A DNA stretch of 25,764 bases, from UHGV virus genome UHGV-0116607; one strand, written 5' to 3'. Of this stretch, positions 6,912 through 8,531 are shown in pieces (the stretch's first letter is position 1; each line of letters starts with the position of its first letter). The DNA comes from a virus. The notes under the pieces were generated by a model. The model was not told the origin of the DNA and ran no database searches. It was given only the letters and a program-made list of their open reading frames with translations. The translations under genes and the position numbers were made by a program.

Positions 6912-8531
6912 GTGGCTATTTTTGGCAGCGGGATAATGTTCCGTCAGGGTAAGTTCGTCTTCCTGATCCAGCGCTCGGATGATGGTACGTGGTGCCCGCC
7001 TGGCGGCACGGTAGAGCCTGGCGAGCTGGCTATTGATGCCGCGCGCCGCGAGGTGCTGGAAGAGGTTGGTTATCAGTACGATGGCCAGCTCACTCCACAC
7101 AGCGTATACGGCGATTATCTGACGTTTCGCGCTGAGGTGCCGGAGAGGTTCGAGGCGAAGCTTAACGACGAATCGCTGGCCGCCGGATGGTTCCACATTG
7201 ACGACATGCCCAAACCGCTTCATCAGCCCTTTGCTGAGATGCTGGCGCAGCAGGCGCTCAATGAAACCGAGGTGGCCGCGCTCATCGCTGACGGGACGCT
7301 AAGCAGCCCGCAATTCTTTATCAACATGTGGATGTTCGCCATCCGGGTTACCGGAACTGGGGTTACCTGGCGATCTGCAGATCAACAGATGGCCTTCCGT
7401 AACCCGGACGACTATCTCACCCCAGAGTTTCTCCAGCGAGTTGCCGGGCTACCGCTCATATGGCTGCACCCGGAGAAAAATACGCTTGATAGCAATGAGT
7501 TCGCAAAACGCGTTATTGGCACCCTGACAAATAGCTGGGTTGCTGACAATGGTGAGGTGTGGGCAATTGCACGCGTATATGACGCCGAGGCTGCCGAAAT
7601 CATGGCAACCAGGCAGTTAAGCACCTCACCAACCGTCAAATTTGTTGAGGTTCCCGATTCAATCATTGAGATCGACGGTCAGCCTCTACTGGTGGAGCCA
7701 TCCCCCGAGCTGCTCGACCACGTTGCAATTTGTGAACAGGGCGTATGGGACAAGCTCCTTGCCCCTACTGGTGTTAAATCTGATTCCATTCCAAACGAGG
7801 CTGAAAAGATGGACGAGGAAAAAATCGTAGCGCTAATCAATAAGGCGATTGACGCACGCATGGCTAAGGCTGACGCAGAAGCAGCAGACCTGAAGGCCAA
7901 GGCCGATGCCGAAGAAGCAGCCAAGAAAGAAAAGGCTGATGCTGAGGCAAAAGAGGCCGAAGAGGCGAAAGCCAAAGCTGACGCGGAAGAGAAAGCCGCG
8001 AAAGAAAAAGCAGACGCTGAAGCCAAAGAGAAGGCCGACGCCGAAGAGGCCGAACGTATGGCGAAAGAAAAAGCTGACTCTCAGCTGCGCCAGGAGATCG
8101 CCGACCTGCGCTCCCGCATCCCAACCGAGTTGAGCGATGAAGAGCGCAACGAAGTCGCCGATGCACAGGTGAAGGCTGATAGCGTGTTCTCATGCTTCGG
8201 CAAGCGCGCGCCGGTACCGCTGTCTGGTGAAAAGCCGCTGGCATATCGCCGCCGCCTGATGATCCAGCTTCAGGAGCATTCGCCTGATTTCAAAACCGTC
8301 GACCTGTCCTCTATCGCTGACTCAGCCCTGCTGAGCGTGGCCGAGAAGACGATCTACGCCGACGCGCAGAAATCGGCAAGCCTGTCTGTTGGCCCTGGCA
8401 TGCTGCGCGAAATTAAACGCGCTGATGCGACCGGTCGCCAGATCAGCACCTTCGAAGGCGATCCTGCTGCCACCTGGGCTCCGTTCCAGTCCGGCAAGCG
8501 TCAGGTCACCAGTTTTAACAACCAGGCTTAA
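6912..8531 (+). CDS. Nudix hydrolase domain fused to a scaffold-like (possibly protease/scaffold) head assembly protein
   Basis: 539 aa; residues about 10-130 carry a perfect Nudix box G-x5-E-x7-REVxEExGY ([23 protein letters not shown]); central region of unknown fold; a Lys/Ala/Asp/Glu-rich coiled-coil repeat block (KADAEA-type) typical of scaffolding proteins; start may be GTG 6912 or ATG 6936. Confidence 0.6.
7860..8080 (+). repeat. Imperfect tandem repeats encoding KADAE(A/E) heptad-like units (coiled-coil scaffold segment)
   Basis: DNA repeats of GCTGA(C/T)GC(A/G/T)GA(A/G)G… encoding [72 protein letters not shown]; the shadow ORFs on the other strand and frames are artefacts of this repeat. 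Confidence 0.6.

Follow-up and report, generated by a model that had tools for sequence, protein, structure and literature searches.

A Nudix hydrolase domain at the N-terminus of a capsid maturation protease-scaffold protein from a Felixviridae-type prophage

Why should a gene that builds the viral procapsid begin with the coding sequence of a nucleotide-hydrolysing enzyme? The question is raised by a single open reading frame on the plus strand of UHGV virus genome UHGV-0116607, of which we analysed a stretch of 25,764 nucleotides (hereafter, the window) that is the late region of a prophage of Enterobacteriaceae, a temperate myovirus of the Felixviridae type. The 539-residue product of this frame consists of three modules, namely a Nudix domain (residues 1 to about 113), a serine protease (about 116-290), and a scaffold (300-539) that is helical and has a conserved domain at its C-terminus. 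With modest conviction, we favour the reading that this is a head-maturation protease/scaffold gene bearing a catalytically intact Nudix enzyme as N-terminal cargo, which would be packaged in the procapsid, retained there, and delivered with the DNA.

Three modules in one reading frame

The N-terminal module is a Nudix hydrolase that is predicted, from its residues, to be catalytically intact. The strict Nudix box has a single match across the six frames of the window and none in 300 shuffles, and the Pfam family NUDIX (PF00293) covers residues 9-112 with 61.4 bits, where the cut-off is 21.1 (E = 1.2e-16). An AlphaFold2 model of the full protein, for which 81 diverse homologues served as input, has a mean predicted local distance difference test score (pLDDT) of 88.4, with most of the Nudix domain above 90, and its comparison with the PDB by Foldseek returned the Nudix alpha/beta/alpha fold, with diadenosine tetraphosphate (Ap4A) hydrolases, MutT and NudC matched at E of about 1e-7. 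Among 62 diverse Nudix-bearing representatives of the family, the RExxEE core is invariant or nearly so, as are R21, W27, A44, E87, W93 and H104; because these last six residues played no part in the selection of sequences, their conservation argues for selection on an active Nudix enzyme. The PDB sequence and fold matches indicate no single substrate, being spread over Nudix enzymes that act on Ap4A, ADP-ribose, NADH and 8-oxo-dGTP, as well as decapping and isoprenoid enzymes. In two IMG/VR relatives that are 84% identical (L043 and L044), the box reads GDVAPGE...REVQEKVGY, with two acidic residues replaced and the domain kept, and this lineage probably carries an inactive Nudix.

The middle module is modelled as a capsid maturation serine protease of the HK97/T4 gp21/herpes-assemblin type with a conserved His...Ser...His arrangement, for which proteolysis is predicted. 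A fold search assigned it the assemblin-like fold common to T4 gp21 and the herpes assemblins, and the profile phrog_530 (‘head maturation protease’) matched residues 159-384 (2.7e-11). When residues 125-323 were scanned alone, DUF2213 (PF09979) matched residues 159-277 with 26.8 bits against a cut-off of 22, and the BFVD matches to the full model included proteins named prohead protease, prohead serine protease and DUF2213, and a 554-residue ‘Nudix hydrolase domain containing protein’. Across 81 aligned representatives, all of which share 38-69% identity with the query, H186, S237-T238-S239-P240, E262 and G277-V-W-D280 are invariant, H270 is missing from one sequence, and the invariance of the His and Ser residues and of those in the Nudix domain extends to representatives at 50% identity or less. 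Ser237 and Ser239 are the candidates for the catalytic serine.

A weak hhalign alignment with T4 gp21 placed H186 opposite His85, within an ‘HP’ motif shared by the two proteins; His85 and Ser140 are presumably the catalytic residues of gp21. Since this alignment is weak and no PDB sequence was matched when the protease domain was used as a profile, the assignment as a protease rests on the fold search and on the PHROG and Pfam profiles. T4 gp21 (PDB 5JBL) has only 8% sequence identity to the domain and differs in having neither a fused scaffold nor cargo.

The third module contains six copies of the motif KADAE, and K, A, D and E make up 84% of residues 318-403, a stretch that is modelled, together with its flanks, as long helices at residues 302-353 and 377-402. 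The C-terminal domain that follows is confidently modelled (pLDDT of 87-98 over residues 411-530 and of 78 over the last nine residues), and E440, Y445, R446, R448 and G516 are invariant or nearly so.

Translation probably also begins internally, at nucleotide 7809, to give this scaffold part by itself. The corresponding residue, M300, is methionine in 70 of the 81 aligned homologues. We surveyed 57 distinct junction classes, drawn from about 120 loci of the protease-scaffold family, and in 51 of them a Shine-Dalgarno sequence precedes the first ATG that lies downstream of the motif GVWDK, with a spacer of exactly 8 nucleotides in 47, as against a control rate of 7% (50/715) at other in-frame ATGs. 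Because the spacer sequence before the internal ATG differs among at least nine lineages, the internal Shine-Dalgarno sequence is not one inherited string. No second scaffold-like gene is present between the portal and capsid genes of the window, and since the sole scaffold-like gene has a conserved internal start, we predict two products: a full-length protein of 59 kDa and a scaffold of 26 kDa (M300-A539). The same organization is familiar from the C/Nu3 genes of phage lambda, the I/Z genes of phage Mu, and the herpesvirus genes UL26/UL26.5, in which the protease is an N-terminal extension of the scaffold and an internal in-frame start yields the scaffold alone. The nested start of the present gene, with its predicted short form, resembles these systems, none of which, to our knowledge, has an extra enzyme domain before the protease.

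The first-pass annotation of this locus, made from the sequence letters alone, had noticed the Nudix signature and the KADAE-rich coiled-coil block, and had placed the polypeptide as a head-assembly protein between the head morphogenesis and capsid genes; the box, the Pfam match, the modelled Nudix fold, the composition and predicted helices of the third module, and the gene order all agree with it, and it is reasonable to read the whole as an enzyme attached to a component of the procapsid. The central domain that it mentioned is, however, not a generic scaffold but a DUF2213/COG3566 protease. A plain scaffold protein was accordingly rejected in favour of a protease plus scaffold, on the DUF2213 profile match and the assemblin-like fold.

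A further explanation would be that a sequencing or assembly artefact joined a separate upstream Nudix gene to a head gene, and stand-alone Nudix genes do occur at this position in distant lineages. Set against this, the fusion is a single frame from end to end in the closest cultured relatives, namely Klebsiella phages RothC/D and vB_Kpn_Chronis (85% DNA identity across the whole gene), the Yersinia vB_YenM phages and Pantoea phage PdC23, and in 80 IMG/VR loci. An uninterrupted 539-residue frame is also found, at 96-100% identity, in many bacterial assemblies. Because one reading frame is conserved across complete phage genomes and viral contigs obtained independently, the fusion is no frameshift artefact, and we rejected this candidate; the probability that we would still assign to it is negligible.

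The phages in question (Chronis, RothC/D, vB_YenM and PdC23) belong to the family Felixviridae, which was ratified by the ICTV in 2025. The protein is extremely common in assemblies of Escherichia coli, Salmonella (including Typhi), Enterobacter, Citrobacter and Klebsiella, where it is named ‘NUDIX hydrolase’. As such, the family is widespread in clinically relevant enterobacterial prophages, and its gene is a polymerase chain reaction (PCR) marker of gut-associated Felixviridae: the published marker primers, designed on RothC gp7 (‘putative virion structural protein’), match positions 6936-6956 and 8508-8528 of the window. The forward primer begins at the internal Met9 codon and not at the GTG start codon of the frame; the conserved N-terminal strand of the homologues supports the GTG, which is preceded at a distance of 9 nucleotides by a GGAG (6899-6902) that overlaps the stop of the upstream gene. 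The profile phrog_6216 matches the protein over its full length (E = 6.5e-245). In five Yersinia phage records the orthologue is named ‘glycosyl transferase’ (in vB_YenM_29.18 it lies at 6001-7632 of locus L002), a name that finds no support in its domain content.

The N-terminal slot in relatives and in the literature

A search with residues 125-539 against 1.84 billion cluster representatives recovered 2008 relatives, and among the best 150 of these an N-terminal Nudix domain was present in 96 and missing from 54. The strict box is found in 85 of the 96, and the other 11 keep RExxEE. In several of the lineages without the domain, a separate gene for a Nudix protein of 126-141 residues lies immediately upstream, its stop overlapping or abutting the start of the protease gene. 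Of the fused and separate-gene arrangements, which the first-pass annotation had proposed to survey, both exist, and the association of Nudix with protease is older than the fusion. Examples of the stand-alone genes are those at 4495-4920 of L092, 4555-4938 of L112, 4551-4931 of L113 and 4513-4938 of L117, which share a conserved C-terminal tail (...PE.GKEIVR).

In other homologues the slot holds different domains: an ADP-ribosyltransferase (ADPrib_exo_Tox) together with Nudix in P0267, a PBECR1 nuclease in P0230, and DUF5710 together with Nudix in P0144. A scan of viral contigs with P0267, the homologue that combines ADP-ribosyltransferase, Nudix and protease, found zero loci. Fusions of related Nudix domains are also seen with the portals of Bcep1, Bcep43, Bcep781 and BcepNY3, with a protein of Arthrobacter phage Sonali that is itself a portal and MuF-like fusion, and with a different protease family in BcepB1A. 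That 96 of the best 150 representatives carry Nudix, that alternative enzymes share its position, and that Nudix is fused elsewhere to portals and to a MuF-like protein are the grounds on which we read the N-terminus as a cargo slot.

ADP-ribosyltransferase and PBECR domains are typical of head-delivered effectors (Iyer et al. 2017, PMC5512222). The effectors fused to MuF proteins and portals, and the polyvalent proteins described in that work, are likewise enzymes carried on head-internal proteins, and the same two domains occur in the slot of the present family. MuF proteins and portals are retained in the head, however, whereas the carrier here is a protease-scaffold that is normally removed at maturation, and a maturation protease is not usually regarded as a delivery vehicle.

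The nearest annotated counterpart is in the virulent Burkholderia phage BcepB1A (GenBank NC_005886), in which gp26 is recorded as ‘head maturation protease, COG3566’ and the nested in-frame gp25 as ‘scaffold protein’. As in the present gene, an N-terminal Nudix domain precedes the protease and a C-terminal scaffold with a nested start, and the gene follows those for the portal and head morphogenesis proteins. The annotated start of gp25 aligns with M300 and has a GGAG 10 nucleotides upstream. Its protease and scaffold are, in contrast, very divergent (phrog_3778), and a leader of about 45 residues stands before the Nudix domain.

The first-pass annotation knew of no description of this fusion, and here it was mistaken. 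Besides the GenBank annotation of gp26 and gp25, a NUDIX+DUF2213 architecture has been listed from Pfam (PMC8770471), and a study by Iyer, Burroughs, Anantharaman and Aravind (2022; PMC9503650, section 3.5.2), which relies on comparative genomics only, proposed that Nudix domains are packaged in the head and injected to act against host responses based on nicotinamide adenine dinucleotide (NAD) and ADP-ribose. Both the fusion architecture and the delivery hypothesis are thus in the literature, the protein family has already been catalogued, and the functional guess of the first-pass annotation, which named the hydrolysis of immune signals or of NAD and ADP-ribose metabolites, besides pool sanitation, as possible roles, agrees with the published hypothesis. 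The head-fused domains of the 2022 study are T4 NudE-like and share with ours the bias to myoviruses and the logic of head packaging and injection, but the similarity of the present domain to NudE is limited to 30 residues around the box. The literature searched contained no experimental test of the head-packaged Nudix hypothesis. Added here are the structural confirmation of the protease, the family-wide evidence for a nested scaffold, the survey of fused and split arrangements, and the alternative cargo domains.

Proposed packaging and delivery, and competing roles, of the Nudix domain

According to the reading that we favour, the scaffold-only protein would be abundant and the full-length molecules a minority; both would assemble together with the capsid protein by way of the C-terminal domain that they share, and this would bring the protease and its Nudix passenger inside the procapsid. 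The protease would then cut the scaffold, most likely releasing itself at the flexible junction around residues 288-300 and not at the ordered junction between Nudix and protease; in the AlphaFold2 model, pLDDT is 93-94 across the latter as against 66-73 at residues 291-310. The Nudix-protease fragment thereby freed, of about 33 kDa, may be of a size that prevents its escape across the capsid shell; it would remain in the head and be carried into the next host along with the DNA. In that host, or in the producing cell at a late stage, the Nudix domain would hydrolyse a nucleoside-diphosphate-X compound, for which our best guess is an ADP-ribose, NAD-derived or ApnA-type molecule of host defence. 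Such loading would differ from that of the T4 passengers (Alt and the internal proteins), which are brought into the head by separate targeting peptides.

Several observations weigh against this reading. Some concern the assignments themselves: PF09979 is not listed in the Pfam scan of the full-length protein, and in the hhalign alignment the serine register is off by about four residues relative to Ser140 of T4 gp21. Others concern the enzyme, in that all matches to the NCBIfam equivalogs that define Nudix substrate classes fell far below cut-off, and the BLASTP alignment with T4 NudE is confined to 30 residues around the Nudix box (57% identity; E = 8e-8 for the pair). Because L043 and L044 lack two acidic residues of the box, Nudix catalysis is dispensable at least sometimes; and because Nudix persists in the split lineages as a gene of its own that is translationally coupled to the protease gene, a covalent link is not required. 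The prohead proteases T4 gp21 and HK97 gp4 digest themselves after maturation, and a passenger could be destroyed along with them. Finally, the searchable literature yielded neither virion proteomics nor enzymology on the family.

Two of these points bear on an alternative to which we give a minority share of belief, that the Nudix enzyme acts only in the producing cell, late in infection, and is linked to a head gene for the sake of co-expression, to be lost or degraded at maturation. It would then remove dinucleotide signals, NAD-derived or other, or else toxic metabolites, which appear when abortive-infection systems are set off by structural proteins. The coupling retained in the split lineages shows that the expression linkage is conserved even without fusion, and self-digestion of the protease would dispose of the passenger, both as this alternative would have it. 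It fits less well with homologues in which the same slot is taken by a PBECR nuclease or by an ADP-ribosyltransferase of the Alt-like kind, with the fusion of Nudix to portals and to the portal/MuF-like protein, a pattern typical of head-delivered effectors (PMC5512222), and with a Nudix-protease junction that is modelled as ordered and not as a cleavable linker.

That same junction, being short and well ordered in the model, speaks for a Nudix domain that is mainly a structural or regulatory appendage, such as a pro-domain or a nucleotide-sensing switch that holds the protease quiet until assembly or DNA packaging, as does the persistence of the domain in the lineage whose catalytic residues are damaged. 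Nevertheless, the conservation of the RExxEE core and of R21, W27, A44, E87 and W93 in diverse representatives speaks against an appendage, about one third of the family representatives do without Nudix yet keep protease and scaffold, and other, unrelated enzymes occupy the slot; for these reasons we hold an appendage to be unlikely.

Less likely still is a housekeeping role, in which a MutT-like activity would sanitize the nucleotide pool for phage DNA replication. Profile matches to MutT, NudI and NudB-type enzymes were obtained, but they are weak and far below the equivalog cut-offs; the gene belongs to the late head module, away from replication genes, and fusion to a procapsid protein would make no sense for cleaning the pool.

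Returning to the cargo reading, its most specific form would have the fragment of about 33 kDa retained in Felixviridae heads and injected, so as to destroy a pyrophosphate-containing immune signal or substrate before phage gene expression. We regard this full sequence of events as doubtful, and its candidate targets include Thoeris-type cyclic ADP-ribose or His-ADPR, ADP-ribose-derived messengers, and NAD-capped or triphosphate RNA ends. If true, a Nudix enzyme delivered by the virion would be a pre-made counter-defence that acts before phage transcription, and the capsid protease would be a general delivery vehicle whose N-terminal cargo slot is swappable among Nudix, ADP-ribosyltransferase and PBECR nuclease. 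The availability of cultured phages (Chronis, RothC/D and PdC23) makes the idea of delivery directly testable.

Genomic setting and neighbouring genes

The genes of the window stand in the order holin/endolysin/spanin, small and large terminase, portal, head morphogenesis, Nudix-protease-scaffold, a 286-residue protein, and major capsid protein, with a tail sheath gene further downstream. Features of the Nudix-protease-scaffold gene and its immediate neighbours are given in Table 1.

Table 1. Positions in the window of the Nudix-protease-scaffold gene, its predicted parts, and adjacent head genes
Feature	Position	Strand	Remarks
Full-length gene, Nudix + capsid maturation protease + scaffold polyprotein	6912..8531	+	539 amino acids (aa), 59.3 kDa
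Nudix hydrolase domain, residues 1 to ~113	6912..7250	+	Pfam PF00293; AlphaFold2 model and Foldseek PDB matches
Nudix box G32-x5-E38-x7-R46-E47-V-L-E50-E51-V-G53-Y54 (residues 32-54)	7005..7073	+	Exact match to GX5EX7REUXEEXGU
Predicted capsid maturation serine protease domain (DUF2213/COG3566), residues ~116-290	7257..7781	+	
His186 codon, candidate catalytic histidine	7467..7469	+	Invariant, in ‘HP’ motif
Ser237-Thr238-Ser239 codons, STSP motif with candidate catalytic serine	7620..7628	+	Invariant
His270 codon, candidate third triad residue (putative role)	7719..7721	+	80/81 sequences
Internal Shine-Dalgarno GAGG	7797..7800	+	8 nucleotides before in-frame ATG
Predicted nested in-frame scaffold-only gene, M300-A539	7809..8531	+	240 aa, 26.1 kDa
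KADAE-rich helical (coiled-coil-like) scaffold segment, residues 302-402	7815..8117	+	Disordered hinge at residues 355-373
Conserved C-terminal domain, residues 409-539	8136..8528	+	Helices and beta hairpin; presumed capsid-binding end of scaffold
Portal protein (context)	4660..6078	+	PF06381 1.6e-17, phrog_146 1.4e-68
Head morphogenesis protein (context)	6075..6899	+	phrog_324
286-aa head-module protein between protease-scaffold and capsid genes (context)	8547..9407	+	Conserved
Major capsid protein (context)	9424..10455	+	phrog_6671, phrog_264; weak PF09950

A homologue of the portal gene is named ‘anti-CBASS protein Acb1 family protein’ by PGAP in RefSeq genomes of E. coli. The portal of the window matches portal profiles only (PF06381 and phrog_146), and the Acb1 name is likely to be a misleading one that was carried over, perhaps from fusions of a portal with a 2H phosphoesterase.

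The gene for the 286-residue protein always separates the protease-scaffold gene from that of the major capsid protein, also in relatives that are about 40% identical, and its product begins with MANS.SFNP.... Its weak matches are to beta-barrels (E1 FCCH and an endosialidase barrel), and it may conceivably serve in decoration or as cement. Its counterparts by position in BcepB1A and Bcep781 carry the annotations virion structural protein and minor head protein. An open reading frame of 263 residues with no assigned function (1415-2206; phrog_16206) separates the lysis cassette from the gene for the small terminase.

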